Of a stretch of 64,000 bases of DNA, positions 19,133 to 51,510 are shown piece by piece (within the stretch, counting starts at the first letter, position 1; every line of letters begins with the position of its first letter). The stretch comes from Chiloscyllium plagiosum (Eukaryota). Made by a program: the position numbers and the translations under genes. The stretch is taken from the NCBI RefSeq assembly GCF_004010195.1, contig NC_057752.1, positions 3,217,487-3,281,486 of the forward strand, in the 5' to 3' direction. Under the pieces are notes generated by a model. The model was not told the DNA's origin. It searched no databases and saw nothing but the letters and a program-made list of their open reading frames with translations.

Positions 19133-19191
19133 CAGTCTGTCTTACTCTCATTTCATCTGTTCTTGAACACACAAGGGGCAGATTTCTCTCC

Positions 19192-19449
19192 AAAGTTTGT
19201 GAGAAGATTTGTAGCTCAGATGCTCGTTGTTGTGGTTCTGTTCACCGAGCTGGGAAATGGTGTTGCAGACGTTTCGTCCCCTGGCTAGGTGACATCCTCA
19301 GTGCTTGGGAGCCTCCTGTGAAACTATAAATGCCGGAGGAAACATCACAGAAGCGCTTCACAGGAGGTTCCCAAGCACTGAGGATGTCACCTAGACAGGG
19401 GACGAAATGTCTGCAACACAAATTCCCAGTTCGGCGAACAGAACCAAAA
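19192..19449. mobile_element. Penelope-like hairpin insertion with hammerhead motifs in both arms, 13-bp TSD
   Basis: TSD CAGATTTCTCTCC (19179-19191 / 19450-19462); ~95-bp inverted arms. Confidence 0.85.
19265..19304 (-). ncRNA. Minimal type I hammerhead ribozyme motif
   Basis: GCA-CUGAGGA-U-GUCACCU(AGCC)AGGGGAC-GAAA-CGUC-UGC: intact core, stem II, GCA/UGC stem I, palindromic ACGU in place of stem III. Confidence 0.7.
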
Positions 19450-19499
19450 CAGATTTCTCTCCTTCACAATTGCTGGTCAACCCTTGTGTGAAACCCTTC

Positions 19500-20085
19500 A
19501 ACGTGCACATTCTCCCTGCGCCTGCGTGGGTCTGCTCCAGTTTCCTCCCACAATCCAAAGATGTGCAGGTTAGGGTGAATTGGCCATGCTAACCCCTCCC
19601 ACCTCCCCCCCCCTCCCTCCCCCGCGCCCCCAGTCTTAGGTGCATTAGTCAGAGGGAAATGGGTCTGGGTGGGTTACTCTTCGGAGGGTCGGTGTGGAGT
19701 TGTTGGGCCGAAGGGCCTGTTTCCACACTGTAGGGGAATGTAATCTAAATGCACCAGATCACCACCAGCTTTCAATTAGGGGCAGCACAGTGGCTCAGTG
19801 GTTAGCACTGTTGCCTCTCAACGCCAGGAACATGGGTTCGATTCCCACCTCGGGCCACTGTCTGTGTGAGGTTTGTATGTTCTCTGCGTGGGTTTCCTCC
19901 GGGCGCTCCAGTTTCCTCCCACAGTCCAAAAGATGTGCAGGCCAGGTGAATTGGCCATGCTAAATTGCCGATAACGCCAGGTTCATTAGTCAGGGGTAAA
20001 TGTAGGAGGGTGGGTTTCTTTTCAGAGGGTTGGTGTGGACTGGTCGGGCTGAATGGCATATTTCCACACTGTAGGGAATCTAATC
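19500..20085 (+). mobile_element. Two HE1-like SINEs (5'-truncated 19500-19748; full 19779-20085)
   Basis: A/B boxes TGGCTCAGTGG / GGTTCGATTCC in the second copy; AATCTAA tails. Confidence 0.9.
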
Positions 20086-20131
20086 AAACACATGTGAATG
20101 TGAACCTAGAATTGCAAGTGTTTTGAGGCAA

Positions 20132-20600
20132 AGAGTCATGGAAACAGACCCTTCGGCCCAACCAGTCCATGCTGACCATAATCCCCAAACTAAACTAGTC
20201 CCAGCTGCCTGCTCCTGGCCCATGTCTCTCCAAACCTTTCCTGTTCACGTCCTTATCTAAGCATCTTTTAAATGTTGTAGTTGTACCCATGTATACCACT
20301 TCCTGAGGAAGCTCAGTCCACACTGTGTAAACAAAATGCCTCTTATGTCTTTTCTTAATCTGTCTCCTCTCCCCTAGTCTTGAAATCCTCCACCCTAGGG
20401 AAAAGACAGCTGCCTATCGATACCCCTCGTGATTTTATCAACCTCTGTAAAGTCACCTCTCAACCTCCTACGCTCCAGTGAAAAAGGTCCCAGCCTCTTC
20501 TTATAACTTCCAGACCCGGCAACATCCTGGGAAATCTCTTCTGAACCCTCCCCAGCTGAATAATATCCTTCCTATAACAGAACTGGACACAATACCCCAA
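20132..20600 (-). mobile_element. Degenerate CR1 3' fragment
   Basis: Reverse complement of the CR1 3' UTR and ORF2 end; similar to 52138-52580. Confidence 0.8.
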
Positions 20601-21349
20601 AAGCGCATCTCAGACCGTGTGGAAAGAAATGGAACTGTTGCCAAATTCGAGTCATGTCAGGCACCTTTACAAGTTTCGTGAACAAAGTCTAATTCGTTCT
20701 GACAAAACTGGAGTGGGGTGAGCTGAAGGAGGTGGACACTGGTGATAGGAGGAGGAACAAAACCAGACAAATTTGTTCAAATGATGTCAAGGTGGATTGT
20801 TGGAAGGACACAAGGCACGGTGATAAAAAGGGGAGTTTTTTATTTCCCCTTTTGGTTTCATTTAGAAAACACAGTAATCTGCACTAGCCAGCTGACAGTC
20901 TATACGTAAATAAAGATAAATTAACACCTTCTCTCCAGTGATGGCTTTGCAAACAGTTGTGATGCCCTTGAGAGATTAGTGAGTTTTGTCAATCCAATGC
21001 ATACGTCAGTGGTGGTGAAAACCATTCCCAGCCCAGCCTGAACACGATGGGACTGTAACTCTTTCTTAGTTCTGTGAAGTCAATTCTTTTCATTTGCTTT
21101 CTCATGGCCAATTTCGGAATTTTTCACCATCCCTTGTCTCAGAGCTGCAATTTGCTTCGAATGAAAAGTAACAGATTGCCGGAAGAGAGATAGTGTGGAG
21201 AGAAATATATGGGCTCTTGCGGTAGTGTCCCTACCTCTATGCAAGGAGATCCAGGTCAAGTCCCACCTGGCCCAGTGCTGTGTCACACAGTCTATCCCAG
21301 GTGAATGAAAAAAATAAGGATATAGTAACAGAATGCCCCATTCATTCAC

Positions 21350-21965
21350 AGTGGCACAGTGGTTAGCACTGCTGCCTCACAGCGCCAGAGACCCGGGTTC
21401 GATTCCAGCCTCGGGTGACTGACTGTGTGGAGTTTGCACGTTCTCCCCGTGTCTGCGTGGGTTTCCTCCAGGTGCTCCGGTTTCCTCCCACAATCCAAAG
21501 ATGTGCAGGTGAGAGTGGATTGGCCAAGTTAAATTGTCCAGGGATGTGCTAGGTAGGTTATGGGGATGGAATGGGGGTGGGCAGGTGAGTTGGATGAGAT
21601 GCATTGACCATGCTAAATTACCTGTAGTGTCCAGGGATGCAAGGCTAGGTAGGTTACAGGCTACAGGGATGGAGTGGGGTGGGTAGGTGAGTTGGATGAG
21701 ATGGATTGACCATGCTAAATTGCCTGCAGTATCCAGAGATGTGCAGGCTTGGTAGGTCAGCCATGGGAAATGTGGGGTTATAGAGATGGTGTGGGTCCGT
21801 TGGATTAGAGGGATTGGACATGCTAAATTACTCCATCGTGTGCAGGGGAGTAACCATGGGAAATGTGGGGTCACATGTGGAGGGTGGTCTGGGTGGTATG
21901 CTCTTTGGAGGGTCAGTACAGACGTGATGGGCTGAATAGCCCCGATCTACAATGTGGGGATTCTA
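21350..21965 (+). mobile_element. HE1-like SINE with internally amplified GT-rich module
   Basis: A/B boxes; module ATTGACCATGCTAAATT..CCAGGGATG..GGTAGGT repeated about 4 times. Confidence 0.88.
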
Positions 21966-22064
21966 CACTGTGTGAGTCTGACTGTGTCGAGATCCCCATT
22001 ATACCTCAGTGATTAGCCCTGCTGAATTTCAGAGCTCCATTCTACTGACAGCCATAGCAGGAGA

Positions 22065-22505
22065 TATAGGGAGAGGCTGAACAGGCTGGGGCTGTTTTCC
22101 CTGGAGCGTCGGAGGCTGAGGGGTGACCTTATAGAGGTTTATAAAATCACGAGGGGCGTGGATAGGGTAAATAGACAAAATCTTTTCCCTGGGGTGGGGG
22201 AGTCCAGAACTTGAGGGCATAGGTTTATGTTGAGAGGGGAAAGATATAAAAGGGACCTAAGGGGCAACTTTTTCATGCAGAGGGTGGTATGTGTATGGAA
22301 TGAGCTGCCAGAGGAAGTGGTGGAGGCTGATACAATGACAACGTTTAAAAGGCATCTGGATGGGTATATGAATAGGAAGGGTTTGGAGGGATATAGGCCA
22401 AGTGCTGGCAGGTGGGACTAGATTAGGTTGGGATATCTGGTCAGCATGGACGGGTTGGACCGAAGAGTCTGCTTCTGTGCTGTACATCTCTATGACGCTA
22501 TGATT
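22065..22505 (+). mobile_element. CR1 LINE 3' fragment
   Basis: RYKRDLRGNFFMQRVVCVWNELPEEVVEA. Confidence 0.93.
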
Positions 22506-23149
22506 ACAGATCACTCAATGTCCTCACAACCAGCTTAGCTGCGAGATTTCCATCGCAAATTCAAAATAAAACAATAGCGATGAGGAGATAGTGAGGCAAT
22601 GTGCACAGTCCCTTCACCACTGTGTCTTCAGGCAAGATAAATAAGAGGGGTTGTGCTGCTTTTGAGGTTATTTAGCGCGTGACAGAGTCATCATTTACCC
22701 TCACTGGCAAACGGCTTCCATCGAGAAGCAAATGACTTCTCTTTTTAGCTGAAAATAAATCTGTGTGAAAGGACGAAAGGTTCTTCGCTCGATCTTGCAG
22801 TTTAATGCACCCTTGTCAATTCTTCCCCAAGGTCTCAGGTCACATGCTCAAAAAAGAAAGTTTTCACAAAAACCTCCTGGGAAAACCGAGCATCAGTATC
22901 TCACGGGTCAAAGACATTGCTTTTAAAATATCAAACGTTTAGGACTATTTACAGCCGAGATGGATAAGGCATCAAATGGATGTCAGTGCATCCCACTACG
23001 AGGAGGATTTGCTGCAGGCTCTGCTGTTACTAGCTTGCAGTTTTCAGCTCTTTGCATTTACAAAGCTTTCCCAGAGCCCTGAATCAATATTCAGCCTTTA
23101 TCGCCAACATCTTGCAGTATCAGTTTCAGGCAATTCTTTCTGTGTGGCA

Positions 23150-24030
23150 CCTCCTCCTCCAGCCCCCTACACCCTCTCCCTATCTCTGTCACTTCCTCCT
23201 CCAGCCCCCTACACCCTCTCCCTATCTCTGTCACCTCCTCCTCCAGCCCCCTACAGGCCCTCCCTATCTCTGTNNNNNNNNNNNNNNNNNNNNNNNNNNN
23301 NNNNNNNNNNNNNNNNNNNNNNNNNNNNNNNNNNNNNNNNNNNNNNNNNNNNNNNNNNNNNNNNNNNNNNNNNNNNNNNNNNNNNNNNNNNNNNNNNNNN
23401 NNNNNNNNNNNNNNNNNNNNNNNNNNNNNNNNNNNNNNNNNNNNNNNNNNNNNNNNNNNNNNNNNNNNNNNNNNNNNNNNNNNNNNNNNNNNNNNNNNNN
23501 NNNNNNNNNNNNNNNNNNNNNNNNNNNNNNNNNNNNNNNNNNNNNNNNNNNNNNNNNNNNNNNNNNNNNNNNNNNNNNNNNNNNNNNNNNNNNNNNNNNN
23601 NNNNNNNNNNNNNNNNNNNNNNNNNNNNNNNNNNNNNNNNNNNNNNNNNNNNNNNNNNNNNNNNNNNNNNNNNNNNNNNNNNNNNNNNNNNNNNNNNNNN
23701 NNNNNNNNNNNNNNNNNNNNNNNNNNNNNNNNNNNNNNNNNNNNNNNNNNNNNNNNNNNNNNNNNNNNNNNNNNNNNNNNNNNNNNNNNNNNNNNNNNNN
23801 NNNNNNNNNNNNNNNNNNNNNNNNNNNNNNNNNNNNNNNNNNNNNNNNNNNNNNNNNNNNNNNNNNNNNNNNNNNNNNNNNNNNNNNNNNNNNNNNNNNN
23901 NNNNNNNNNNNGTCCCTACATCCCTCCCTATCTCCGTCACCTCCCTCAGCCCCTACATCCCTCCCTATCTCTGTCACCTCCTGCAGCCCCCACATCCCTC
24001 CCTATCTCTGCCAACTCCTCCAGCCCCTCC
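23150..24030. repeat. C-rich ~38-43 bp minisatellite spanning an N gap (23274-23911)
   Basis: CCTCCTCCAGCCCCCTACACCCTCTCCCTATCTCTGTCA-type units on both sides of 638 Ns. Confidence 0.9.
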
Positions 24031-24352
24031 ACACACACTCACACCCACACATACACACATACACACAAACTGACAGGCACACATACACACAGGAATACAC
24101 ATACACACTTTCACACAAAGACACACGCATACACACACCCCTACATACACACAAACTCACAGGCACAAACACACTCACACACACACTCGCACACATACAG
24201 GCAGACACAGAGGCACACACAGACACACACACAGACACACACACACAGAGGAACACACCCATAGACACACCTCCACCCCCACACACACCCATAGACACAC
24301 ACACGCACACACACATACACTCACACACATAAACTCACAGGCACACACACCT
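24030..24352. repeat. Degenerate (CA)n microsatellite
   Basis: CA-rich low-complexity sequence. Confidence 0.95.
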
Positions 24353-24861
24353 CCCCACAGTGCAGTATTGCCCCAACACTGCCAGCTGAGATTGTTCGGT
24401 TTCAGTCTCAGGACTGGGACTTGAACTAACAATTTTTAGACACAAAGGCAAGAGTCCTACCAATGGCGGGCGGTGAGTTGAGTGTGGTTGGGAATCAGAG
24501 GTCACTTTGGGCCTATTATTCTCAACCACTGGTGTTTCCCTGTCCTCGAGCTGATGACAGAAACAGAATGCTGTAATCAGTGACCATTTGAAGATCAGAT
24601 ATTACTCCTCCAAACCGTGTCCTCTCATTGGCTCTTTACGCCCAAGGGACAAAGCTACGGATAATCTTGAGAAGGAGAGAAAATTCAAAAGATGAATATC
24701 GACAATGCCCTTTGATATAAGAAAGTTATCCTCTCACCCAGAATAATAGTGAGCTCATACGTGGTTGGTAATTAAGACTGAAGTTTTGCAAGAACAGTCA
24801 CGTGTCTTTTAGACCTTTGAATATTTAGGGGCTGGGTGATAGAAATGTATATTGTTGTGAC

Positions 24862-24984
24862 TTGCTCAGAAGGGTCACCAGACCAGAAACGTTAACTCTG
24901 ATTTCTCGCCACAGAGGCTGCCAGACCTGCTGAGCTTTTCCCGCAGCTTCTGCGTTTGTCTCTGATTTCCAGCATCCGCAGTTT
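24862..24984 (+). mobile_element. Penelope terminal fragment
   Basis: GAAGGGTCACCAGACCAGAAACGTTAAC..CTGCCAGACCTGCTGAGCTTTTCC..CCAGCATCCGCAG. Confidence 0.7.
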
Positions 24985-25296
24985 AGATTAGATTCGATTC
25001 CCTACAGTGTGGAAACAGGCCCTTCGGCCCAACCAGTCCACACTGACCCTCCGAAGAGCAACCCACCCAGACCCATTTCCCTCTGATTAATGCACCTAAC
25101 ACTATGGATAATTTAGCATGGCCAATTCACCCTGACCTGCACATCTTTTGGATTATGGGAGGAAACCGGAGCACTCGAAGGAAACCCACGCAGGCACGGG
25201 GAGAATGTGCAAATTCCAGTCGCCCGAGGCTGGAATCGGACCCGGGTCCCTGGTGCTGTGAGGCAGCAGTGCTAACCACTGAGCCATCGTGCCACC
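24984..25296 (-). mobile_element. HE1-like SINE
   Basis: Reverse-complement A/B boxes, TTAGA repeats at the tail. Confidence 0.9.
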
Positions 25297-25326
25297 CCAA
25301 GCACATTGCCCTTGAGCCAGGTAGGA

Positions 25327-25555
25327 CTGGGGAACGTGTGAATCTGATTTTCCGTATTGTCGTGCATGTCTGTCAAGTGAATGGTCCAGGCTGTCAAGGG
25401 GAAGGCCGAGGTTACGAAATCCTCTGGTAAAGTGTCCATTCTGTGACTACAAATGCTGGTGGACGCCATGTTTGAATTGGACAGTGCTGACAGTTTACGC
25501 TCGGAAGAGGAAAGGGCAGAAGGGCTGAAGGAAAACAGATTCACACGTTCCCCAG
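25327..25555. repeat. Isolated 26-27 bp inverted repeat, 176-nt spacer
   Basis: CTGGGGAACGTGTGAATCTGATTTTCC (25327-25353) vs GGAAAACAGATTCACACGTTCCCCAG (25530-25555), one indel. Confidence 0.85.
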
Positions 25556-25964
25556 CCCGCATTCGGAGGACAGCTCATTGTTTATTCAATTGCAAGAACT
25601 AGCTTCTAAGAAGAAAACTCAGAAATTGTCTTTGTGGACACAACAGAGAGTAAATATTACTTAGGCGGCCGCACATCATCACCTATTGAGATGTTTCAAG
25701 ATTAAGGAGGTTGGAGAACCCAGTGACAATTTCCACCAGTACCTTCTCAGTTGTAAATAAGAGGGTTGATGCAATACACCTCGCTGTGGGCTGATTATAG
25801 AGCACCACTGCAACGTGCTAACATGCAGTGTGTCTATAACCTCTACTTTTAGCTTCGAGATATTTATTATTGCGGAAGAAAGGACCAGAAAAACAAGCAC
25901 AATGCGTACTTGCTCCGAGCAGTTACAGCAGTTTTTTACCTCATTTCTCAAATGTTATTTGGTC

Positions 25965-26665
25965 ACAGAGTCATCGAGATGTACAGCACAGAAGCAAACC
26001 CTTCAGTCCAACGCGTCCATGCCGACCAGATATCCCAACCTAACCTAGTCCCATTTGCCAGCACTTGGCCCATGTCCCTCCAGATCCTTCCTATTTATAT
26101 ATCCATCCAGATGCCTTTTAAATGTTGTCATTGTACCAGCCTCCATCACTTCCTCTGGCAGCTCATTCCATACACGTACCACCCTCTGTGTGAAAAAGTT
26201 GCTCTTCAGGTCCCTTTTATATCTTTCCCCTCTCACCCTAAACCTATGCCCTCTAGTTCTGGACCCCCCACCCCAGGGAAAAGACTTTGTCTATTTATCC
26301 TATCCAAGCCCCTTCATGATTCTGTAAGGTCACCCCTCAGCCTCCGACGCTCCAGGGAAAACAGCCCCAGCCTGTTCAGCCTCTCCCTCGAGCACAAATC
26401 CTCCAACCCTGGCAACATCCTTGTAAATCTTTTCTGAACCCTTTCAAGTTTCACAACCTCCTTCCTATAGCAGGGAGACCAGAATTGCACACAATACTCC
26501 AGAAGTGGACTAAACAGTGTCCTACACAGCTGCAACATGACCTCCCAATGTCTATGCACTGACCAATAAAGGAAAGCATACCAAACACCTTCTTCACTAT
26601 CCTATCTACCTGGGACTCTACTTTCAATGAGCTATGAACCCGCATTCCAAGGTCTCTTCCTTCAG
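25965..26665 (-). mobile_element. CR1 LINE ORF2 3' fragment
   Basis: [34 protein letters not shown]. Confidence 0.95.
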
Positions 26666-26863
26666 CACTGAGATCCAAGGGTTGAAAACATACTCTTGTG
26701 TGAGTTCATGTGCTGCCATGTATTTCCCACTGAGGAATTTGATTTGAACCAAGGGGAGGGGAAAATCCAAAATACATTTGCTGACTTTTGTTTTGTGTAG
26801 GATAGTACACATCAAACCCAGTAGTAATTCTATCGTAGGGCTCTAACGTTCACTGTTTCCTGA

Positions 26864-27616
26864 GCTTGCGTCAATTGATTCAGTCTGGGGAGTCTCCCAA
26901 CTAGTTGCCATTGTCTGTGGACATAACAGGAAATTGCCTTCATCTCCCACAATCTGCCAATCTGGCTCAGATTTGGGAGAGTCTTTCCTACTTGTACGTG
27001 TATGGAATGAGCTGCCAGAGGAAGTGGTGGAGGCTGATACAATTACAACATTTAAGAGGCATTGGGATGGGTAGGTGAATAGGAAGGGTTTGGGCCGGGT
27101 GCTAGCAAGTGGGACTAGATTGGGTTGGGGTATCTGGTCACCATGGACGGGTTGGACCGAAGGGTCTGTTTCCATGCTGTACATCTCTATGACTCTATAA
27201 CTACAACTGCAGTGGCCCCTTCTGATTTTCTCGCTCTTGGCTTGCGTCAATTGATTCAGTCTGGGGAGTCTCCCAACTAGTTGCCATTGTCTGTGGACAT
27301 AACAGGAAATTGCCTTCATCTCCCACAATCTGCCAATCTGGCTCAGATTTGGGAGAGTCTTTCCTACTTGTACGTGTATGGAATGAGCTGCCAGAGGAAG
27401 TGGTGGAGGCTGATACAATTACAACATTTAAGAGGCATTGGGATGGGTAGGTGAATAGGAAGGGTTTGGGCCGGGTGCTAGCAGGTGGGACTAGATTGGG
27501 TTGGGGTATCTGGTCACCATGGATGGGTTGGACCGAAGGGTCTGTTTCCATGCTGTACATCTCTATGACTCTATGACTACAACTGCAGTGGCCCCTTCTG
27601 ATTTTCTTCGCTCTTG
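26864..27616. repeat. 376-bp near-identical tandem duplication, each unit containing a CR1 3' end
   Basis: GCTTGCGTCAATTGATTCAG starts at 26864 and at 27240. Confidence 0.95.
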
Positions 27617-27928
27617 TCACGCCGTTGGATGTCCGTGCTGAGAAAATGAACCTTTGCCTCAAGTCAGGCAACCCAACGGAAAGACGATGCGAACCTTGAA
27701 AGGGTTTGATGGCGGCCAATGGTGTGGAGGTGCCGGTGTTGGACTGGGGTGGACACGGTCAGACGTCACACGCCACCAGGTTATCGCCCAGCTTTCGGAG
27801 CGCTGCCCCTCCGTCAGGTGAAGTCACTTGACAATTCACACATGAAGATTTCCAAATCCCTCTGCTCTGCAGCTTGCTGCAGTCTTACTCTGTCGAAATA
27901 ATAGTCAGCTCCTCTATTCTTCCTGCCA

Positions 27929-28127
27929 AATGTGTTGCTGGAAAAGCGCAGCAGGTCAGGCAGCATCCAAGGTGCAGGAAAATCGGCGTTTCGGGCATAA
28001 GCCCTTCTTCAGGCTTATGCCCGAAACGTCGATTCTCCTGCTCCTTGGATGCTGCCTGACCTGCTGTGCTTTTCCAGCAACACATCTTTCAGCTCTGATC
28101 TCCAGCATCTGCAGTCCTCACTTTCTC
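27929..28127. mobile_element. Penelope-like hairpin insertion, 15-bp TSD
   Basis: TSD CTATTCTTCCTGCCA (27914-27928 / 28128-28142); ~70-bp inverted arms; hammerhead-like CUGAAGAAGGGCUUAUGCCCGAAACGCC on the minus strand. Confidence 0.87.
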
Positions 28128-28584: not shown

Positions 28585-28617
<33 letters not shown>

Positions 28618-29060
28618 CTGTCAAACCCTGTGTTTGATTTTACCTTTTTTTGCCAAGGGGTGTTTATGGGGATTGTTGCAAGCATTTGAAACAGCTTCGT
28701 TACGTTGGGATGATCTGTTGGGGTTAAGTTATTCGGTATTCTGGTCTCTTTTGTCTGCTGTCAGACCCAGTGTTTGATTTTACCTTTTTTTGCCAAGGAG
28801 TGTTTATGGGGAATGTTGCAGGAATTTGGAACAGCTTCATTACGTTGGAATGATCTGTTGGGGTTAGGTTATTCGGTATTCTGGTCTCTTTTGTCTGTGT
28901 TTCATTCGGTAATCTTGTAAATAAATTCTGTGTTGTGTAAAACTAAGTAGTCTGACCAGCTCATCCCTCCTGGAATATCTACTTTACACCTGCTTAAAAC
29001 AACGAGCATCGTTAGGGTCTGGGCTACTTTCTTGAAATGTTTCGAGGGGGATTGGCCTGA
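28283..29060 (+). mobile_element. LTR-like element (TGTGACGATG family) with internal ~140-bp duplication and (CT)n
   Basis: Starts TGTGACGATG; AATAAA at ~28920; homologous to 30703-31020 and 38040-38509; 28627-28760 repeated at 28766-28900. Confidence 0.7.
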
Positions 29061-29459: not shown

Positions 29460-29746
29460 GGGTGGCACTGTGGCTCAGTGGTTAGCACGGCTGCCTCACA
29501 GCACCAGGAACCCGAGTTCAATTCCAGCCTCGGGTGACTGTCTGTGTGGGGCTTGCACATTCTCCCAGTGCCTGCATGGGTTTCCTCCGGGTGCTCTGGT
29601 TTCCTCCCAGGGTCCAAAGATGTGCAGGTTAGGTGAATTGGCCACGCTAAATTGCCCATAATGTTAGGTGCATTTGTCAGAGGGAAATGGGTCTGGGTGG
29701 GTTAGTCTTCAGAGGGTTGGTGTGGACTGGTTGGGCCACACTGTAG
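29460..29746 (+). mobile_element. HE1-like SINE
   Basis: A-box TGGCTCAGTGG, B-box GAGTTCAATTCC. Confidence 0.9.
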
Positions 29747-29797
29747 GTCATCTCGTCATATCATCATTTTGCCCCATCTGTGGCCACTAGGAAAGGT

Positions 29798-30235
29798 TAA
29801 AATCCCACAACACCAGATTATAGTCCAACAGGTTTATTTGAAAGCACTAGCTTTCGGAGCGCTGCTCCTTCATCAGGAAGCCAGTGGAGCAGGAATATAA
29901 GACAAAGAATTTGCAGCAAAAGATCACAGTGTCATGCAACTGAAATGCAATCTTGAATGAACCTAGATTGCTTTTAAGTCTTTCATCGTTTGGAATAAGT
30001 TGCAGGTTTAGGTTGAGGTTGTAGGCTTAATTTGCAGCAATCTTGATTTGTTCAATATATCATTTCAGTTGTAATCTTTTGCTATAAATTCTGTGTCACA
30101 TATTCCTGATCCACAGCTACCTGATGAAGGAGCAGCTCTCCGAAAGCTAGTGCTTCCAAATAAACCTGTTGGACTATAACCTGGTGTTGTGTGATTTTTA
30201 ACTTTGTCCACCCCAGTCCAACACTGGCTCCTCCA
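29798..30235. mobile_element. Penelope-like hairpin insertion with two hammerhead motifs, 13-bp TSD
   Basis: TSD CACTAGGAAAGGT (29785-29797 / 30236-30248); ~180-bp inverted arms. Confidence 0.87.
30118..30152 (+). ncRNA. Minimal hammerhead ribozyme motif
   Basis: UAC-CUGAUGA-A-GGAG(CAGCU)CUCC-GAAA-GCUA-GUG; palindromic AGCU; mirror copy on the minus strand at ~29844-29878. Confidence 0.65.
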
Positions 30236-30702
30236 CACTAGGAAAGGTGTAAATGCATTCGAGAGAGTGCAGAGAGGATTCACAAGAATGCTTCCAGGGG
30301 TGAGTCGCTTTGATGGGAGAAGATTGGGATAGCATTGCTGAAAACCATAAGAGGTCTGGACAGAGTAGACAGAGAGAGAGAGAGACTATTCCCACAGTGT
30401 GGGGGGAGAATCGGGAAGCAGAGTCAAAGAGTCATACAGATACAGTCAGATTTAAAAGGAATGGCAAAAGAAGTGAAGGTGACATGAGGAGAGAAACATC
30501 CTTTTTCATCAGCAAGCCATGGAATGTACTGCCTGAGTGGTGGAGGTCAATTCAGTTGTGACTTTTAAACGGGAATTGGGGATGCAATAGTCTAGTGGCA
30601 TTATCACTGGGTTGTGAATCCAGAGATCTGGGTAATGCTCTGGGGAGCTGGGTTCACACCCCACCATGGCAGATGGTGGAATTTGAATTCAATAAAGAAT
30701 CT

Positions 30703-32241: not shown

Positions 32242-32242
32242 C

Positions 32243-33652: not shown

Positions 33653-34819
33653 TTTCTGTAAAGTTTCCCAATAGAGTTAAGTTATTTTAAGTTTTGATGT
33701 GGAGGTGCCGGTGTTGGACTGGGGTTGGACAAGGTCAGAAGTCACACGACTCCAGATTACGGTCCAACAGGTTTATTTGAAATCACCAACTTTTGGAGGA
33801 CTTTTGTCTTCTGGGGTCTCAGTTTTCAATTAAAATTGCTGTCAGGCTGGGCCCTCTTTCGCTGGACCCAAACAGCTTTAGGCAGCCAGTTGAAGTGCCT
33901 GTTCAGAAGCTTCAAAATTGAAAAGGTGAACAGTTTTTGGAAGCGGGCAATTTTTAACCGCTCAGGTTCCAAGCTAAAGTGATGAAAAGAAACCTGAACA
34001 GCCCCATCCAGTAAAGGGCTCAACAGTACTCCTCTACATTGACAGGAAGGTATTGTAAAGAGTTAATGCGAGGATGGAAGTAGGATAGTTTCCATCGTCT
34101 TCAGGAAGTGATGTAAGATCACATGACTTATAAGAGCTGGTTCTTTCTTGCAGTCTTGTGGCCCTGCAAGTAGAATTTATTTACGCCAATTAAGATCACA
34201 TAGTATTATTGGCATTTGTCTTTGCAATCTTGCCTTTAGAATGTGACTTTCAAAGACAGGTTTGAAACGGGATTCATTGGGACCCCTATCAACCTGTAAT
34301 CTGTAAATTGCCCCATCACTCTCAGACGTATGCGTCTAATTCTCTTTCATTTGCATTTTTATTGAAAAGAAACGAGCATTAGCTCAGCAGGAATTTAAAC
34401 CTCTGCTGGGTGAATCACTTCATCGTTACATCTGGTGCTTAATTTTTAATAACATTTCAAATAAAAAAGGCTGATAAGCTTTTAAGCAATAACACTCTTC
34501 ATTCTGCACTCAATTAAATTAAAAGAAAATGAAACATTTTAGATCATCCATTGTTTCACTTCAAATTAAAGTGACAGCACAGATAACAGCAAAAGAATTG
34601 ATTCATGCCAAAAGGAAATGGACACCTGTTACTTTAATGAGTGCTCAAATCTCAAATCTATTTCTTTAGCAAGAAAGAGCCTGTGTTCATTTAGAGTCAC
34701 ACCACAGGGGAACGCTCTTTCTGATAGCAAATGGGATGAATGACCAGATAACTTGCTGATGATGGGGCTAGCTGAGGGGATGATGGTGGTCAGAACACTA
34801 GAACGTCCTGAACAAAATC

Positions 34820-34952
34820 CCCCAAGACCTGCAGATGCTGGAAATCAGAAACAAAAACAGAAGTTGCTGGAAAAGCTCAGCGGGTCCGGCAGCATCCGGT
34901 GGAGAGAAATCGGGAGTTAACGTTTCGGGTGCGGTGACCCTTCCTCAGAATT
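34820..34952 (-). mobile_element. Penelope terminal fragment with intact hammerhead core
   Basis: Minus strand UU-CUGAGGA-A-GGGU(CACCGC)ACCC-GAAA-CGUU-AA at 34916-34950. Confidence 0.7.
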
Positions 34953-35191
34953 GATGGGAGCTCGGAAAATGTTGGTTTTAGGGTGAGGGAGAAGGAGGTA
35001 AGGAAGAAATTATCGGTGGAGATCGAGCAAGGTGCACTGATGGCTAGAACGCCCTGCTCTGACAAGCTGACCAACGTTAGAAAAGGCAGGCAGGATGTTG
35101 ATTTAAATCCTCAAAGTGCCTTACCTTCCTCAAACGATAACAGCGTCTCCTACAGCGCAGAACTCCTGTGGGTCTTCCTAGCGAGAGGATT

Positions 35192-43979: not shown

Positions 43980-44091
43980 TCATAGAATCACAGTGTGGAA
44001 GCAGGATTGTGGGAGGAAACCGGAGCACCTGGAGGAGAATGTGCAAACTCCACACAGACAGTCACCCGAGACTGGGATCTCTCTCTCTCTG

Positions 44092-44122
<31 letters not shown>

Positions 44123-44168
44123 ATCTCTCTCTCTCCCCCTCCCTCCCTCCCTCTCTCTCTCTCTGTCC
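43980..44168 (-). repeat. SINE fragment plus (CT)n tract
   Basis: TGTGGGAGGAAACCGGAGCACC..CAGTCACCCGAG followed by CT-rich run. Confidence 0.8.
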
Positions 44169-44565
44169 TAATTTAAGAAGTTCCTTTATGCATTCTAGTT
44201 CCGGATAGGAAATCAAGAACAGGCTCCATGCAGAAATGAACGAGAGACATGGGCAATGCCACTCCACTTCACTTCGTCATGATGCCAGCTTAACCAGGGG
44301 TTGAGACAGCAGTAACCTATTGGGATCCACAATGTGAGAAAGACAATTAACATCCCAGCACCATAGGGGAGGCAATTAAACTGGCAGCGCTCTGCAGGGA
44401 ACATACTCGGGTTTTAACAAGGCAATGTTTTTATGCGGCAGCTTTGGCTAATTACAACTCTTGGCTCACTCTACCATGTAAACTGATGCATCTTTAAACT
44501 GTATCGTGGGTAAGAACATGGATAAGTAATTCACTGGTCAGCATGAATAGCATTGAGAAGGGTGG

Positions 44566-45327
44566 AGAGTGTGGTGCTGGAAAAGCACAGTAGGTCAGGC
44601 AGCATCCGAGGAGCAGGAGAGTTGACTTTTCGGGCATAAGCCCTTCATCAGGAATGTGGCTTGTGGGCCAAGGGGGCTGAGAGATAAAGGGGAGAGGGGG
44701 TTGGGGCTGGGGGAGAGGGACCTGAGAGTGCGATAGGTAGATGAAGGTGGGAGTGAAGGTGCTACGCTGGAGAGAAAGGTGGAACACTTCAGAGAACACC
44801 TCCAGGACACACATACGAAACAACCCCACTGCCCTGTGGTCGAACACCTCAACTCCCCTCCCACACCACCAAGGGCCTGCAAGTCCTGGGCCTCCTCCAT
44901 CACCAAACCTTTACCACCCTGGGCCTGGAGGAAGAATGCCTCATTTTCCACCTTGGGATCCTCCAACCACATGGGATCAATGGGGGTTTCACCAGTTTCC
45001 TCATTTCCCCTCCCCCAACCTTATCGCAGTTCCAACCTTCCAGCTCAGCGCTGTTCTCATGACCTATCCTACCTGTCTATCTTTCTTCCCATCTATCCGC
45101 CCCACTCTCCCCTCCAACCTATCACCTTTACCCCCACCTCCATCCCACCCCCCTCCCGTTTATCTTCCAGCCCCCTTGGCCCACAAGCCTCATTCCTGAT
45201 GAAGGGCTTATGCCAGAAATATTGACTCTCCTGCTCCTCGGCTGCTGCCTGACCTGCTGTGCTTTTCCAGCACCACACTCTTCGACTCTGATCCCCAGCA
45301 TCTGCAGTGCTCACTTTCTCCTGACAC
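44566..45327 (+). mobile_element. Penelope-like element: inverted 5' pLTR, GIY-YIG C-terminal remnant, 3' pLTR, 12-bp TSD
   Basis: TSD TGAGAAGGGTGG (44554-44565 / 45328-45339); EHFREHLQDT..PHCPVVEHLNSP; CTGATGAAGGGCTTATGCC in both arms. Confidence 0.88.
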
Positions 45328-46799
45328 TGAGAAGGGTGGGTGTCGTGCAAAACCCCATGTGCCTGGAGGAGAAGAAACATTATTGGTTTCCCTTCCATGC
45401 TAACAAGCCCATGATATGATTACTCATGGTCAATACTCTCCACCACAAACTGCTCCACACTCAAAGATTAGATGCTGCTTCGACTGTGTCCACTATTTCT
45501 TCGGCTATTTTACACACCCAGCATGAGTAAAGGTTTCGATAGACTTCAGTGTTGCTGGGTGCGATCGAGTGACAGTGTGAAACAGCAGGAGGTCATGGGG
45601 AGCAAGAATGCATGCAGGAGACATTGAGGGGAGAGAGGGCAAATGAAGGGAGAGAGACTGGGTGACAGTGAGGGAGGCGAGTGTATGAAGCACTGAGGGA
45701 TTACTGCGAATGAGGGAGCATCTGATTGAGAACAGCTCTCTACCGAAGCTGGGAAACAAATTTTTCCGTGTATTTCCGACTGTAGCCTTGTTTATCCACA
45801 CGGTGTGCCTCAGCAGACTGCAATGTAAGATGTGAAGTTGTCAGATTGAAGTAGTTGACGGTTAAAGACTGTTACTAGGACAGGCACAGGCCCACACGGT
45901 CCATTTCCCAGTCTAGACATCTCTCACGGTCCCCAGGCCAACTCAGTGTGAGTTGCTAAAGACTGCACAGCCCGCCAGTACAATACTAGCTCCAATCACT
46001 GGAGACGAGTCACGGCAGTGGACTTCGATGGAATCCTAAGGGAGCCACTTGGGGTTTGGAAAAGCGTGAAGAAAGGTTATTTGAATGGTGGTGCACCAAT
46101 GGCATACATTGAGTATGCTTCACACACATAGCCACTCTTCCAAAAACAGCTCCATCACAACTCTCTAGGTTGGCTTAAGTCAACAAGGCTAGTTGTCCTT
46201 ATTGACTGCTCTAATACAGCAATGCAAATATTGACAGGTATTACTCTGGGAGCAGAGAATGAGTGGATTTCAATTCCCTGGCTGGCTCTGGCTTTGTGCC
46301 AGGTTCAGGCTTATTTATTCTGACAGGTATAATTGTATCACAGAGAGCTTCAATAATCTGTTGCAAGAAACAGCCATGAATAGTGACACGGAATTACCTC
46401 GAAATGTACAGCACGGAGGGAGCCCAACAGCTGATGCTTATGCTCAGCTCCTTCTAACTCCCTCCAGCTCATCCAGTCATGTTCCACGTCTTGCTGGAGC
46501 ATGCTTTACTTTCCCCAAATGATACCACTCCTTGGAAATTTACCCCAAAGGCCCCCTCCCAAGCTCCAAACCCGCCATGCTGGTCTTCGTCATCCGTGGA
46601 ATCGCATCGTGCCAAAACGGTACCACTTCCGACCACAACCCGTTTGACTGGCCATCACGGGACGATGGGGCATCTCATGGGACTCTCCAACTAACTGCTT
46701 CTCTCAAAGAATCTAACAGCTGATGTCCTGAACAGAACATGAGGAATGTGAGTGGCAGCGAGCGCTTTGGGGTTTCGAACCTGTCCATTATTCGATCTG

Positions 46800-47512
46800 A
46801 ACAAAGAACATTCCAGCAAAGTGCAGGCCCTTCGGCCCTCGATGTTTCGCCAACCTGTGGAACCAATCTGGAGCCCATCTATCCTACATTATTCCATTTT
46901 CATCCATATGTTAATCCAATGACCATTTAAATACCTTTAAAATTGGCAAGTCTGTTGCAGGCAGTGCATTCCACGCCCCGAATACTCTCTGAGTAAAGAA
47001 CCTACCTCTGACATCTATCCTATATCTATCACCCCTCAATTTAAAGCTACGCCCCCTTGTGCTAGCCATCACCATCCAAGGAAAAAGGCTCTCACTGTCC
47101 ACCCTATCTAACTCTCTGATTATGTTACATGTTTCAATTAACTCACCTTTCTAACGAAAACAGCCTCAAGTCCCTCAGCCTTTCCTCGTAAGACCTTCGC
47201 TCCATACCAGGCAGCATCCTGGTAAATCTCCTCTGAACCCTTTCCAAACCTTCCACATCCTTCTCATAATGCGATGACCAGAACTGTACGCAATACTCCA
47301 AGTGCAGCCGCACCAGAGTTTTGTACAGCTGCAACATAACCTCGTGGCTCCGAAACTCAATCTCTCTACTAATAAAAGCTAACACACCGTACGCCTTCTT
47401 AACACCCCTATCGACCTGAGTGGCAACTTTGAGGGATCTCTCTGTTCGTCGACACTGCCAAGAATCTTGCCATTAGCCCAGTACTCTGCATTCCTGCTAC
47501 TCCTTCCAACAT
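46800..47512 (-). mobile_element. CR1 ORF2 3' fragment (divergent subfamily)
   Basis: [47 protein letters not shown]. Confidence 0.92.
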
Positions 47513-47635
47513 GAAGTTTGAGGTTCATCTTCAGCCCCAGCTGCAATCTCCAGCCTGCTTCCCATATCCACTGATTCATTCAGAGCGACGTGAATAATGT
47601 CAGTGACTGAACCTGCATGGTCCACTGTGCTAAAC

Positions 47636-48075
47636 TTCAAGGGACTGAGTTACAGGGAGAGGTTGGACAAGCTAGGGTGGCGTTTCTTTACAGCGTAACA
47701 GACTGAGGGAGCATCTAATCGAAGAGTGTAAGATCCTAAGACGCATGAATAGGGTGAATGCACTCAGTCTGTTTCCCAGGGTTGGGGAGTCGAGGATGAG
47801 AGGGCACCAGCTTAAGGTTGGAGGGGAAAGAATAAAAGGGAACCTGAGGGGCAATGTTTTTACACAGAGGGTGGTACGCATAGGGAATGAGCTTCCAGCG
47901 GAAGTGGTTGAGGCGGGTACATTAACATCATTTAAAAGGCATTTGGACAAATACATGGATAGGAAAGGATATGGGCCAAGTGCAGGGAAATGGGGTTAGC
48001 ATGGGTGGCATTTTGGTCAGAATGCACCAGTTTGGGGCAAAGGACCTGTCTCCGTGCTGTAGGACTCTATGACCC
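47636..48075 (+). mobile_element. CR1 3' fragment
   Basis: LRGNVFTQRVVRIGNELPAEVVEAG. Confidence 0.9.
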
Positions 48076-48184
48076 TAACCTCTTGGTATCTACTCTGGTT
48101 TCAATATGACTGCAAATGGATTGGTTTCACTTCCTGTGCATGCGAGTTGATAGACCTTAATAGGAAGGCTTACTGTAGCTGTCC

Positions 48185-48730
48185 AAGGTGCTGAGGAGAC
48201 CACACCTGGAGTACTGTGAACAGTTTGGGTTTCCTTATTTAAGGAAAGATATTTATTCGATTTGAGGTGGTTCAGAGGAGGTTCACTAGGATGATCCCTG
48301 GGATGGAGGGATCGTGTTATGAGCAAAGGCTAAACAGGCAGGGAATCTACTCACTGGAGTTTAGGAGAATGAGAGGCGATCTCATTGAAACATAGAAGGG
48401 CTTGACAGGGTCAGTGCCAAGAGGATGTTTCTGCTCTAGCAATCCATGATGAGAGGGCACAGTCTCAGAATAAAGGGGCGCCAATTTATGACTGAGATGA
48501 GAAGGAATTTCTTCCCTGAGACATTTGAGAGTCTTTGGAATTCTGTGCCACAGGGAGCCGTGGGGGCAGAGTCGTCACGTATATTTAAGGCTGAGATCAA
48601 TTCATGATCAGTCGGTGAATCAAGAGGCACACAGAAAGGGCAGGAAAATGGACGTGAGGAACATCGGGTCAGTCATGATGCTGTTGAATGGTGGAGCAGG
48701 CTTGAGGGGCCGAATGGCCTTACTCCTGTC
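48185..48730 (+). mobile_element. Older CR1 3' fragment
   Basis: CACACCTGGAGTACTGTGAACAGTTTGGG..AGAGGAGGTTCACTAGG..GGCCGAATGGCCTTACTCCT. Confidence 0.8.
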
Positions 48731-49091
48731 ATTCTGGTCATTCTGCCCGCTGAGTCAGATGATGGCTGATCTTCTACCTCAGCTACACCTTCCCTACACT
48801 ACCTCCCCGTCCCCCCCACACCCCCCATACCCCTTCATTCCCTCAGCATTTGAGAAAATTGGTCAATCTCTGACTTCAAAAAGACTCACTGTCGAAGCAT
48901 TCACAATCGTGTGGAATGGAGATTTGTAAAGATTCATTCCTCCATGCTCCGAAACTCTCGAGAAAATGTGCCCATTCTGCTCAAGCACCTGGAACGCCCA
49001 ATAGCTTTGGCTGAACTTGTCTCAGAAAGGAAATCCTGGATTTTGAATAACTTGACTGTTGAAATTCTGTCTGGACCTATCCAGATAGGAT

Positions 49092-49510
49092 TTCAGTGGT
49101 TAGCACTGCTGCCTCACAGCGCCAGGGACCCGGGTTCGATTCCAGCCTTGGGCAACTGTCTGCGTGGAGTTTGCACATTCTCCCCGTGTCTGCGTGGGTT
49201 TCCTCCAGGTTCTCTGGTTTCCTGAAGAAGGGCTTATGCCCGAAACGTCGATTCTCCTGCTCCTTGGATGCTGCCTGACCTGCTGCGCTTTTCCAGCAAC
49301 ACATTTTCAGCTTTCCTCCCACAGTCCAAAGATGTGCAGGTTGGGGTGGATGGGCCATGGGAAATTGCCCCATAGCGTGCTGGGATGGGTTAGGTGGATT
49401 GCCGGGTTACAAGGTAGGTGGGGTGGGTCTGGGTGGGATGCCCTTCGGAGCGTCGGTATGGAGCCGATGGGCCAAATGGCCTGTTTCCATGCTGTAGAGA
49501 TTCTATGAGT
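49092..49510 (+). mobile_element. HE1-like SINE carrying a Penelope terminal fragment (~49221-49311)
   Basis: B-box GGTTCGATTCC; SINE body split at GGTTTCCT|CCCACAG. Confidence 0.87.
49219..49252 (+). ncRNA. Minimal hammerhead ribozyme motif inside SINE
   Basis: UC-CUGAAGA-A-GGGC(UUAU)GCCC-GAAA-CGUC-GA. Confidence 0.7.
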
Positions 49511-49745
49511 CTGTCTCAAACAGGAGATAGCATACTATTCCTCGATGTTGTCTGGCAGATGAGCTGTGAAAGCCAGGTATAGCCCTTGATGGAACAGAGT
49601 CAATCCTGTGGAGTACCAAAGAAATTGATTATTTGGCTATGCATCAGCTCTCATGCTATTTATTGGACCTTGATGCGGGCTAGCAAGGCATCCGTGGCCG
49701 CCCTCTGCAAAGGAGACGATTGGCTTTGAATTGCTTTGGGAGCAC

Positions 49746-50302
49746 ATAGAGTCATAGAGATGTACAGCATGGAAACAGACCCATCGGTACAACCCATCCA
49801 TGCCGACCCAACCCAACCCAACCCAATCGAGTCCCACCTACCAGCAACCGGCCCATATCCCTCCAAACCCTTCCTAATCATATACCCATCCAAATGCTGC
49901 TTAAATGTTGCAATTGTACCAGCCTCCACCACATCCTCTGGCAGCTCATTCCATACACGTACCACCCTCTGCATGAAAAAGTTGCCCCTTAGGTCTCTTT
50001 TATATCTTTCCCCTCTCACCCTAAACCTATGCCCTCTAGTTCTGGACTCCCCGTCCTGTACAGCCGCAACATGACCTCCCAACTCCTGTACTCAATACTC
50101 TGACCAATAAAGGAAAGCATACCAAACGCCTTCTTCACTATCCTATCTACCTGTGACTCCACTTTCAAGGAGCTATGAACCTGCACTCCAAGGTCTCTTT
50201 GTTCAGCAACACTCCCTAGGACCTTACCATTAAGTGTATAAGTCCTGCTAAGAGTTGCTTTCCCAAAATGCTGCACCTCGCATTTATCTGAATTAAACTC
50301 CA
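49746..50302 (-). mobile_element. CR1 ORF2 fragment with internal deletion
   Basis: MEFNSDKCEVQHFGK..DLGVQVHSSLKV; WNELPEDVVEAG. Confidence 0.93.
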
Positions 50303-51091
50303 TATCACATCGTTACACCAGCACAATTCCCTTCCCTGTGGCTGTTGTTGTACATTGCAAAACCTGGCTGAAGTTTACTATCCAACGTTACAAAGTGAGT
50401 GTGCGATAGCATGAGACTATTTTTAATCCAGTTAGCTCAAAGATCACTTATGAAAATTGCTGGGAGACTGTTGAGAGCGCGAGAGAGAAAAAGCTAACGC
50501 TGTAAAAGGAACATAATCAGAGTCAAATATCAAACCCATGCTTCATCATTAGTGTCTTGGATATGACAAAGCCAGCGTACAGACCTCGCTGAATTATTCA
50601 TCCGCCTATTAAATGAAACTACACACAGCTTCAAAAACTCCAAAGTGCTGGGACAAAATGTTGGATGAGCTGGATCTCAGCTAACATTGTGCATTGAAGG
50701 TTCCCTGTGGAAAGTCTCAGTAATTTAAAAAGTTGAGTTCGCCACTGATCGGGAGTATTTTCCACTGACACATCACAGGAAGGGGACATCAATGGACCTG
50801 TCACTTGAATGTACTGGAGTTATTTTTCCAACGTCAGTGAGGAAACTTCAGCGAGAACAAAAGCGGACTCGTCTCCGCCATGAATTGCTATTAATTTTTG
50901 CTTTAACGCGCTGAAGGACTGTCTCTTTGAATGATCAGTTTAACCATGCTTGCAATGTTAAGCAGGTGCTGCAACTGTGTAGCCTTCGTGGCATGGAAAC
51001 CAAGCAGAACCTCAGAGACAAGCAACACAAATTGAATCCTCGCTCTGCATGGCTCTCCCTATCCACTTCAAACTGGACCCCTTCCAACCTT

Positions 51092-51510
51092 CAGAGTCGA
51101 GATTACACTGGTGCTGGAAAAGCACAGCAGGTCAGGCAGCATCTGAGGAGCAGGAAAATCGATGTTTCAGGCAAAAGCCCTTCATCAGGAATGAAGGCGG
51201 GGAGCCTGCGGGGTGGAGAGATAAATGGGAGGGGGGGGTGGGGCTGGGGAAAAGGTAGCCAAGAGTACAATAGGTGGATGGAGGTGGGGATGAAGGTGAT
51301 AGGTCAGAGAGGAGGGTGGAGCAGATAAGGAAGATTGGCAGGTAGGACAGGTCATGAGGGCGGTGCTGAGCTGGAAGTTTGGAACTAGGGTGAGGTGGGG
51401 GGAAGGGGAAATGCGGAAATTGGTGAAGTCCACATTGAGGCCCTGGGGTTGAAGTGTTCCGAGGCGGAAGATGAGGCGTTCTTCCTCCAAGCATCGGGTG
51501 GTGAGGCCCA
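51092..51510 (-). mobile_element. Penelope-like 3' fragment (GIY-YIG end plus pLTR)
   Basis: LEEERLIFRLGTLQPQGLNVDF; CTGATGAAGGGCTTTTGCCTGAAACATC on the minus strand. Confidence 0.85.

Follow-up and report, generated by a model that had tools for sequence, protein, structure and literature searches.

Minimal hammerhead ribozymes in the pseudo-LTRs (pLTRs) of metazoan Penelope-like elements (PLEs) were described in 2014 (Cervera and De la Pena, PMC4209133). Canonical endonuclease-positive (EN+) PLE insertions carry an inverted pLTR, a 30- to 40-bp tail and a target site duplication (TSD) (PMC3846280, Arkhipova et al. 2013; PMC8557442, Craig et al. 2021), and the Neptune clade is defined by a Cys-rich linker before the GIY-YIG domain (PMC8557442, PMC3846280). 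For Poseidon of Anolis (PAc), the hammerhead was cleaved only with protein and was dispensable for insertion in vitro (Frangieh et al. 2024, PMC11167929). Non-LTR retrozymes are hammerhead-bearing pLTR derivatives arranged in tandem units, and they have been reported from one chondrichthyan (bioRxiv 10.64898/2026.07.22.740005). The hosts named in the accessible parts of PMC4209133 are fishes, coelacanth, Xenopus and reptiles, with no sharks among them, and two of its supplements contain no match for shark, Callorhinchus, Leucoraja or skate. A search of the open-licence literature for hammerhead ribozymes in cartilaginous fish returned nothing relevant, which does not imply absence from print or from Repbase/Dfam.

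Here, we analyzed a 64-kb stretch of the Chiloscyllium plagiosum genome (the window), for which a first-pass annotation had proposed a multi-family system of hammerhead-bearing Penelope derivatives. The pieces are very probably dead-on-arrival, 5′-truncated insertions of endonuclease-positive PLEs belonging to about three lineages (A, C plus D, and B). Each piece is the end module of an element, consisting of a pLTR with a minimal hammerhead and often a tail of 36 to 43 nt, and many of these modules are fused to an inverted truncated copy and bordered by TSDs. Family A, family D and one C-type copy match PLE proteins; for B, no protein link was found. The proposed PLE origin is thus upheld by the protein links and by the PLE-type inverted copy, tail and TSD. 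The label of a system of derivatives was unsupported or overstated, as the pieces are 5′-truncated insertion products. Most of their cores are decayed.

A strict descriptor of the minimal hammerhead (core, one inserted base, G10.1-C11.1, at least three stem II pairs and GAAA-NN-U-H), which was composed after the matches were known, detected seven cores in the window and none in 300 dinucleotide shuffles. The 15.2-16.2 pair was palindromic in five of the seven. All four cores quoted by the first-pass annotation as distinct sequence contexts were present (C3 to H17: 19301-19268 on the minus strand, 30121-30149 on the plus strand, 34948-34919 on the minus strand and 49222-49249 on the plus strand), and the degenerate copies that it had placed at about 27990, 44630, 45195 and 51170 were located as family D cores at 28012 (−), 44651 (−), 45196 (+) and 51188 (−). 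Additional cores were found at 19378 (+), 29876 (−), 2374 (−), 27817 (−) and 52711 (−). Intact cores account for 5 of the 13 tabulated copies, with all four families (A to D) represented; a sixth, at 45196, passed the scripted intactness test, yet it has lost G10.1-C11.1. Rfam (E ≤ 5) gave 12 matches over the window, none to a hammerhead family and only to miRNA-like hairpins and lncRNAs. By hand, 17 insertions with a sum of 4769 bp were listed, and therefore the earlier figure of more than a dozen pieces per 64 kb holds.

The stem II sequences had been claimed to differ between families while staying paired, and our counts agree with this. Pairs 2 to 4 are altered on both sides between families, which represents compensatory change with pairing kept: family A has U-A at pair 2, where the intact copies of B, C and D have G-C; pair 3 is C-G, A-U or G-C, and pair 4 is G-C, U-A or C-G, with an A-G mismatch in family A. 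The core served as the anchor for these counts, because a MAFFT alignment of the 13 motifs shifted the B rows by one column. The 4-nt palindrome described in place of helix III was also recovered, with 15.2-16.2 being CG in A, C and D and GC in B among the five intact copies. Helix I of the intact copies is weak, comprising one to three contiguous pairs, and in several copies its 5′ strand has been truncated or has decayed. Monomer and dimer folds of six copies (ViennaRNA) never yielded the hammerhead as the minimum-energy structure, a result that is uninformative for motifs with a non-canonical core. Most of the sequencing depth placed on family B carries the single stem II variant shown (30137), which pairs better than the window copy. 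The same core was carried by 117 metagenome loci, 24 of which had a PLE-protein match. Using column shuffles that ignore kinship among the sequences, stem II pair 4, a position left free by the pattern, was paired in 60 of 93 loci (shuffle mean, 31; maximum, 45), and the helix I pairs, also pattern free, were formed in 62 to 69 of 93 (shuffle maximum, 44 to 49). No similarity between the window elements and the 117 loci was detected by blastn, and there were no matches to the family B pattern in metagenome contigs or to the C/D and A patterns in viral contigs.

The family A fold-back insertion spans positions 19192 to 19449 (both arms) and is flanked by an exact 13-bp TSD (19179/19450). Its direct pLTR piece (+) contains a TATA-like motif at 19325 and the broken core at 19378, and the inverted copy (−) contains the intact core 19301-19268 plus a 38-nt tail. 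The ATG of the ORF overlaps the core at the boundary to stem II, 28 nt ahead of the predicted cut site, and two 3′ ends lie within the ORF (+66 and +104). The encoded peptide is 86% identical over 44 amino acids to the N terminus of a bamboo-shark RT protein (P0146), whose record stops before any endonuclease and which shares only 28% identity with the Neptune-type protein P0048. This layout, with an ORF start inside the hammerhead, suggests a Poseidon-like element, the clade being named by motifs and layout.

Downstream of the core, the DNA of families C and D is about 70% identical. Four independent lineages were thus rejected, and this kinship leaves about three; the earlier claim of several coexisting lineages at high density is supported. 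A family D fold-back at 27929-28127 (both arms; exact 15-bp TSD, 27914/28128) has an inverted arm beginning exactly at C3 (28012, U16.1 lost) and a plus arm with a 41-nt tail. The insertion at 44566-45324 (TSD 44551/45325, 15 bp with one mismatch) comprises an inverted pLTR with the broken core 44651 (−), a frameshifted C-terminal remnant of a GIY-YIG endonuclease (44758-45047, +) and a direct pLTR with the broken core 45196 and a 43-nt tail; the remnant matched the whale-shark protein P0014 (tblastn, E 1e-15) and was identical to P0030 at 20 of 27 positions. A 5′-truncated copy without a tail (51095-51512, −; exact 12-bp TSD, 51083/51513) retains an endonuclease C-terminal remnant at about 51502-51398 (tblastn, E 7e-11), the pLTR and the broken core 51188. 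The short copy at 49219-49311 (+) starts from the intact core 49222-49249 and lies inside a SINE-like repeat that is interrupted at 49223 and continues at 49312 with a 6-nt overlap; scored as a 6-bp TSD, this overlap is at chance level. The arms of the fold-back at 63161-63299 (12-bp TSD with one mismatch, 63149/63300) start downstream of the core, and the hammerhead is gone.

Among the family C copies, that at 34811-35043 (−; 13-bp TSD with one mismatch, 34798/35044) has the intact core 34948-34919 and a tail and keeps 95 nt upstream of the core. A C-like short copy with a broken core begins at C3 (52582-52711, −; 14-bp TSD with one mismatch, 52568/52712). An old C-type copy (10130-11225, −; TSD at chance level only) consists of a decayed GIY-YIG remnant (11225-10792), a repeat-interrupted pLTR and a decayed hammerhead end; it was matched by 103 of 132 PLE-type proteins in tblastn and by family C in blastn (10233-10136). 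Decayed family C pieces comprise a fold-back at 7510-7688 (both arms), a short copy at 24862-24982 (+; no TSD found) that is 85% identical over 115 nt to the copy at 34.8 kb, and pieces in both orientations at 60000-60180. The protein matched by the D remnants, P0014, contains GIY-YIG above and RVT_1 below the Pfam cut-off; a CX2-5CXXC linker, CX4CXXC in P0014, precedes GIY-YIG in both P0014 and P0030, and it is unreadable in the window copies. By eye, the zebra-shark protein P0015 reads through into a peptide resembling the in-frame D-hammerhead peptide. Pfam gave no relevant match in five pieces of the window endonuclease remnants and recognized none of the first seven relatives. Judged by the motifs of the closest proteins, C and D probably form one Neptune-type lineage.

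The family B fold-back (29798-30235, both arms; exact 13-bp TSD, 29785/30236) contains two intact cores, 30121-30149 (+) and 29876-29848 (−). Its plus arm has a 36-nt tail, an AATAAA signal at 30159-30164, beginning 10 nt past the hammerhead, and a GU-rich tract from 30180. Short copies on the minus strand start at a broken core with an internal deletion (27720-27819; no TSD found), inside stem II with the AATAAA and tail kept (33695-33800) or, decayed, at the core (2266-2375); end pieces of the B and C/D types, nested in one another and decayed, occupy 16675-16888 (−). Reads ending in A-runs were seen on the fold-back at 30176/30179 and 29821/29818. Neither the 132 Neptune-type nor the 2 A-type proteins gave a tblastn match to B, and among the loose ends listed for B no ORF-like consensus was found.

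An adjacent inverted 5′-truncated copy was seen in six insertions (A at 19 kb, B at 30 kb, D at 28, 44 and 63 kb and C at 7.5 kb). The arms differed in length by 38, 36, 43 and 41 nt in all four fold-backs measured, corresponding to a one-sided tail. The TSDs are 12 to 15 bp long; a TSD score of at least 12 was reached by 5 of the 17 hand-picked candidates and a score of at least 9 by 9 of them, whereas among 150 random interval pairs the corresponding numbers were 2 and 9. For 7 of the 17, the TSD was absent or at chance level. The window contains no full-length element (pLTR-ORF-pLTR). Dimer cleavage had also been envisaged. Paired cores inside the long fold-backs point to opposite strands, so that the dimer geometry is absent at these loci, and because the window holds no same-strand tandem pair of cores, cleavage as dimers in cis is implausible here.

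Following published work on PLEs, the RT/GIY-YIG protein of the element would nick the target, and reverse transcription would begin at one or the other of two internal sites separated by about 40 nt, giving tailed or tail-less ends. Copying would mostly halt early, often close to the hammerhead start, and a second, inverted copy would be joined before fill-in of the staggered nick. The hammerhead may be retained because it acts in the full-length parent RNA, either as a dimer formed via the 4-nt palindrome or assisted by the element protein, and at these loci the hammerheads are most likely inert and decaying.

Family B, and perhaps the short C and D copies, could instead represent a non-autonomous, SINE-like PLE derivative, in which a unit of about 120 nt, from shortly ahead of the hammerhead to the tail, is transcribed alone and mobilized in trans; we consider this rather unlikely. 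Family B is very abundant: two DNA runs placed 117,439 and 103,677 contigs on its insertion, where the stretch 30156-30191 has about 100 times the summed depth of 30066-30101. However, summed contig depth does not give copy number, and at 85% likeness the same step in depth would arise if subfamilies diverged upstream of the core. Also in favor of this reading, contigs have loose ends at 30119 and 30224-30237, and of the 15 joints shown, 11 begin at 29875-29877, where the hammerhead of the inverted arm starts. Moreover, 5 of the 13 window cores start within about 3 nt of C3 (3 with TSD or junction evidence), and in A and B a TATA-like motif precedes the apparent start by about 30 nt. A shared 5′ end is also expected from reverse transcription reaching the 5′ end of a normal PLE transcript, and the copies of B at 29.8 to 30.2 kb, D at 44 and 51 kb and C at 35 kb continue well upstream, with two of the four entering the ORF.

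Type I minimal hammerheads in mostly non-coding pieces would also suit non-LTR retrozymes, tandem hammerhead repeats replicating via circular RNA, for which the chondrichthyan report offers a precedent. Nevertheless, all 28 tandem-repeat rows lie outside the hammerhead copies, cores of one family on one strand come no closer to each other than 2059 bp (one of that pair being broken), and several copies contain PLE ORF remnants; with tandem arrays missing, we rejected this very improbable reading for the window. Least credible of all is that the motifs are chance look-alikes in ordinary repeats or belong to MITE-like fold-back DNA transposons. The absence of an Rfam hammerhead family, the palindromic insertions and the many broken cores would fit, but the seven descriptor matches against none in the shuffles and the same core in unrelated contexts with compensating stems do not. 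Chance resemblance is refuted by the protein links and stem compensation, and a MITE-like transposon by unequal, tailed arms and PLE protein remnants. Truncated insertion of EN+ PLEs remains our preferred explanation.

In one RNA run, 1730 of 4022 reads placed on B ended in A-runs 12 to 15 nt past the AATAAA, which is 27 to 30 nt past the predicted hammerhead cut site. The B module thus likely serves shark transcripts as a poly(A) site, and transcripts ending there would carry a latent cut site 27 to 30 nt ahead of the tail. No pile of read ends was seen in RNA run X21, from which products of 27 to 30 nt would be missing in any case. B RNAs might pair with one another in trans through the 4-nt palindrome, or the protein of the element might activate them. 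That the abundant module, a hammerhead with a complete poly(A) signal, forms a dispersed, retroelement-derived 3′-end switch, in which cleavage activated by trans-dimers or protein strips the tail, is a highly speculative proposal. The open-licence literature yielded nothing joining Penelope retrotransposons, polyadenylation sites and hammerheads, which does not imply absence from print; the term "polyadenyl" is absent from PMC2377424. If B gives many host genes poly(A) sites with a cleavable hammerhead before the tail, it would carry greater weight. For now, the window extends a known PLE feature to a shark genome and provides clean examples of inverted copy, tail and TSD in three lineages, which are useful for repeat curation and for testing the model in which PLE reverse transcription has two start sites.

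Compared with the accessible descriptions of related systems, the window hammerheads share with those of PMC4209133 the core, the base inserted between 9 and 10.1, G10.1-C11.1, the palindromic 15.2-16.2 and the missing helix III, as well as multiple consensus families per genome, chiefly solitary truncated copies and dual motifs 100 to 700 bp apart on opposite strands. They appear to differ in helix I (4 to 5 bp in PMC4209133), and they differ in a stem II of 4 to 6 bp. The kind itself is already known, as several consensus families of PLE minimal hammerheads per genome have been in print since 2014 (PMC4209133). Canonical EN+ PLEs likewise show an inverted 5′-truncated copy beside a direct one, a single-end tail and a TSD; the measured tails fit the published 30 to 40 bp (PMC8557442, PMC3846280), whereas the TSDs exceed the 8 to 10 bp of the rotifer examples, and the full-length partial tandem known from these elements is missing from the window. 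Retrozymes, defined by at least two consecutive tandem units with a complete hammerhead each, have no counterpart here. The closest named proteins come from bamboo, whale and zebra sharks, which supports the shark host proposed by the first-pass annotation. As in Neptune PLEs, CX4CXXC lies ahead of GIY-YIG in the shark proteins matched by D and the old C-type copy; in the window itself, truncation has removed the linker from the D copies, and the C-type copy is too decayed for it to be recognized. PAc resembles family A in an ORF that starts where stem II begins, in the distance from ATG to cut (26 nt) and in two 3′ ends inside the ORF, and it differs in its main RT start at +111 to +118; the arm-length differences agree with its two RT start sites (PMC11167929). 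PLE ends bearing minimal hammerheads are of a described kind, and the poly(A) signal behind the family B motif is an extra.

All four hammerhead cores quoted in the first-pass annotation, together with its four degenerate copies, were found where it had placed them. A strict hammerhead descriptor, composed only after the cores had been seen, retrieved seven cores in the window compared to none in 300 block-wise dinucleotide shuffles. Among 13 copies anchored on the core, five were intact (family A, 19301, minus strand; family B, 30121, plus, and 29876, minus; family C, 34948, minus; family D, 49222, plus), and the other eight were broken, through loss of a base in the core, of the palindrome or of the closing G-C pair. 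From family to family, both sides of stem II vary at pairs 2 to 4, which bears out that the stems differ yet stay paired. The palindrome is CG in families A, C and D and GC in family B, helix I of the intact copies is short (1 to 3 contiguous pairs), and no Rfam hammerhead model matched the window cores. The high density of pieces was likewise confirmed (17 insertions listed, 4769 bp in total). The proposed division into four families held in part: the core contexts are distinct, but families C and D are ~70% alike 3′ of the core and are therefore better treated as one group.

The pieces are Penelope-like element (PLE) end modules inserted with target-site duplications (TSDs). Six insertions are fold-backs in which a direct copy is joined to a truncated one in inverted orientation, and in the four measured, the 3′ end of one arm extends further, by 38 nt in family A, 36 nt in family B and 43 and 41 nt in family D. 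Exact TSDs were found for the family A and B insertions (13 bp each) and for the family D copies D28k (15 bp) and D51k (12 bp); TSDs with one mismatch were found for D44k (15 bp), D63k (12 bp) and the family C copies C35k (13 bp) and C52k (14 bp). Nine of the 17 candidates, which were picked by hand, had a TSD score of ≥9 versus 9 of 150 random interval pairs, and no TSD above chance was found for 7 of the 17. The short family D copy at 49.2k has a 6-bp duplication, based on host repeat continuity. Five of the 13 window cores begin within ~3 nt of C3, three of them with boundary evidence. TATA-like motifs are present in the pseudo-LTRs of families A (19325-19357) and B (30083-30113); the inverted family A arm begins ~30 nt past its motif, which suggests that some 5′ ends may represent the transcript start.

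A 49-residue query from 51.4-51.5k matched 11 proteins at an E value of ≤0.001 (1.84 billion representatives searched), and shark proteins were reached via one of them. These include the whale-shark protein P0014: its GIY-YIG domain passes the Pfam cut-off, its RVT_1 match falls short of it, and the protein also has a CX4CXXC linker. Endonuclease remnants were located by tblastn at 44758-45047 (plus), ~51502-51398 (minus) and 11225-10792 (minus), and a D- or C-type hammerhead end lies downstream of each. The bamboo-shark protein P0030 is identical to one family D piece at 20 of 27 residues, and a family A peptide matched the N terminus of the bamboo-shark RT protein P0146 (86% over 44 aa; E value, 2e-13), which shares 28% identity with the Neptune-type protein P0048. 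No coding remnant was found within the window for family B pieces. Clade names for the window families are inferred from sequence features and layout rather than from a tree. Judged by its closest protein relatives, the host is shark-like. Gene models P0031, P0035 and P0115, named kinase, chitinase-domain protein and XIAP, consist mostly of PLE RT/endonuclease sequence and are likely annotation artefacts or exonised PLE copies.

In the proposed mechanism, the GIY-YIG domain would nick the target, and reverse transcription would begin internally at either of two sites, giving a tail or no tail. It would terminate early, often close to the hammerhead start, and an inverted copy would then be added. 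The hammerhead presumably works while part of the parent RNA, either dimerised or assisted by protein. Dimer cleavage, the mode named in the first-pass annotation, finds little support at the window loci. Paired cores lie on opposite strands inside hairpins that are 73-83% paired, no tandem array in the window covers a hammerhead, and the nearest same-strand core pair of one family is 2059 bp apart. Thus, cis-dimer cleavage is implausible at these loci, and the copies are probably inert.

The sole lead worth pursuing from these insertions is the family B poly(A) module. Just behind the family B hammerhead come AATAAA and a GU-rich tract (30159-30199 and 29798-29838). AATAAA was found 10 nt past the cut site in two of three family B cores checked and also in two pieces without a full core, and was absent from nine copies of families A, C and D. 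In the poly(A)-primed RNA run X21, 1730 of 4022 reads on the family B insertion end in A-runs, at 30176/30179 and the mirror positions 29821/29818. These ends fall 12-15 nt past AATAAA (30159-30164), ahead of the GU-rich tract and 27-30 nt 3′ of the predicted cut site. No templated A-run was found at these positions in the window (longest, 3-4), although internal priming at other copies might contribute to the ends. The upstream loose ends of the reads are unlike the window locus, and a 2-nt insertion makes up 0.2% of DNA depth versus 406 of 2100 reads; much of the signal therefore comes from a few other loci, as either host mRNA ends or element transcripts. Read ends did not pile up at the predicted cut site in X21, where short products would escape detection. 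A further run on that sample, X22, yielded 0 reads, which carries no evidential weight. From the two DNA runs, one each for organisms A and B, 117,439 and 103,677 contigs fall on the insertion, and summed depth rises ~100-fold from the upstream to the downstream side of the core; this depth is not copy number, and subfamily divergence could enlarge the step. Of 15 joints listed, 11 start where the core of the inverted arm starts. The literature searched held no report of a hammerhead with a poly(A) signal behind it, which does not imply absence from print.

Other repeats in the window comprise a 32-bp minisatellite (3501-6630; 97 copies, 96% matches), a 31-bp tandem array (14877-15352; 15 copies) and recent two-copy tandem duplications at 26864-27616 (376 bp, 98%) and 28614-28897 (140 bp, 92%). 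A non-LTR retrotransposon RT fragment (54045-54710; RVT_1 below and ALKBH8_N above cut-off) adjoins an assembly gap. A LINE-like 3′ end, which we take to be CR1-like, occurs in many copies that are 86-93% alike (13155-13659, 18041-18430, 22111-22500, 57283-57656 and others). More than 10 copies of a SINE-like repeat of ~260-330 nt (29476-29737, 49093-49503, 24982-25282 and others) presumably resemble the shark HE1 SINE; ARAGORN found no tRNA for it.

Hammerhead-bearing PLE end pieces are a known kind, and the inverted truncated copy, tail and TSD of the window insertions are shared with endonuclease-positive PLEs, for which PMC8557442 and PMC3846280 describe an inverted 5′-truncated copy, a one-ended 30-40 bp tail and a TSD. 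In family A, whose two 3′ ends lie at +66 and +104, the ATG sits where the core meets stem II, 28 nt ahead of the predicted cut site, a layout like that of Anolis Poseidon PAc (26 nt; PMC11167929). A generic hammerhead pattern recovered at least 117 metagenome loci, 24 of them with a PLE-protein match at an E value of <1e-5 among the matches listed. At positions that the pattern left free, stem II pair 4 was paired in 60 of 93 distinct motifs listed (column shuffles, which ignore relatedness: mean 31, maximum 45), and helix I pairs were present in 65, 69 and 62 (shuffle maxima, 49, 47 and 44). Because the pattern itself constrained the palindrome, the number of motifs that keep it (85) barely exceeded the shuffle maximum of 83. 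The matches and the above-shuffle pairing indicate that the predicted minimal hammerhead is a common animal PLE feature, in line with PMC4209133, which reports several families per genome and opposite-strand hammerhead pairs 100-700 bp apart. In each of two metagenome loci (L063 and L071), ~50-60 nt separates two hammerheads on opposite strands: the fold-back layout of the window insertions also occurs outside sharks. A whale-shark preprint already notes a PLE expansion, and a 2026 preprint (bioRxiv 10.64898/2026.07.22.740005) describes hammerhead retrozymes in one chondrichthyan. The window families are further members of the already described PLE hammerhead kind.
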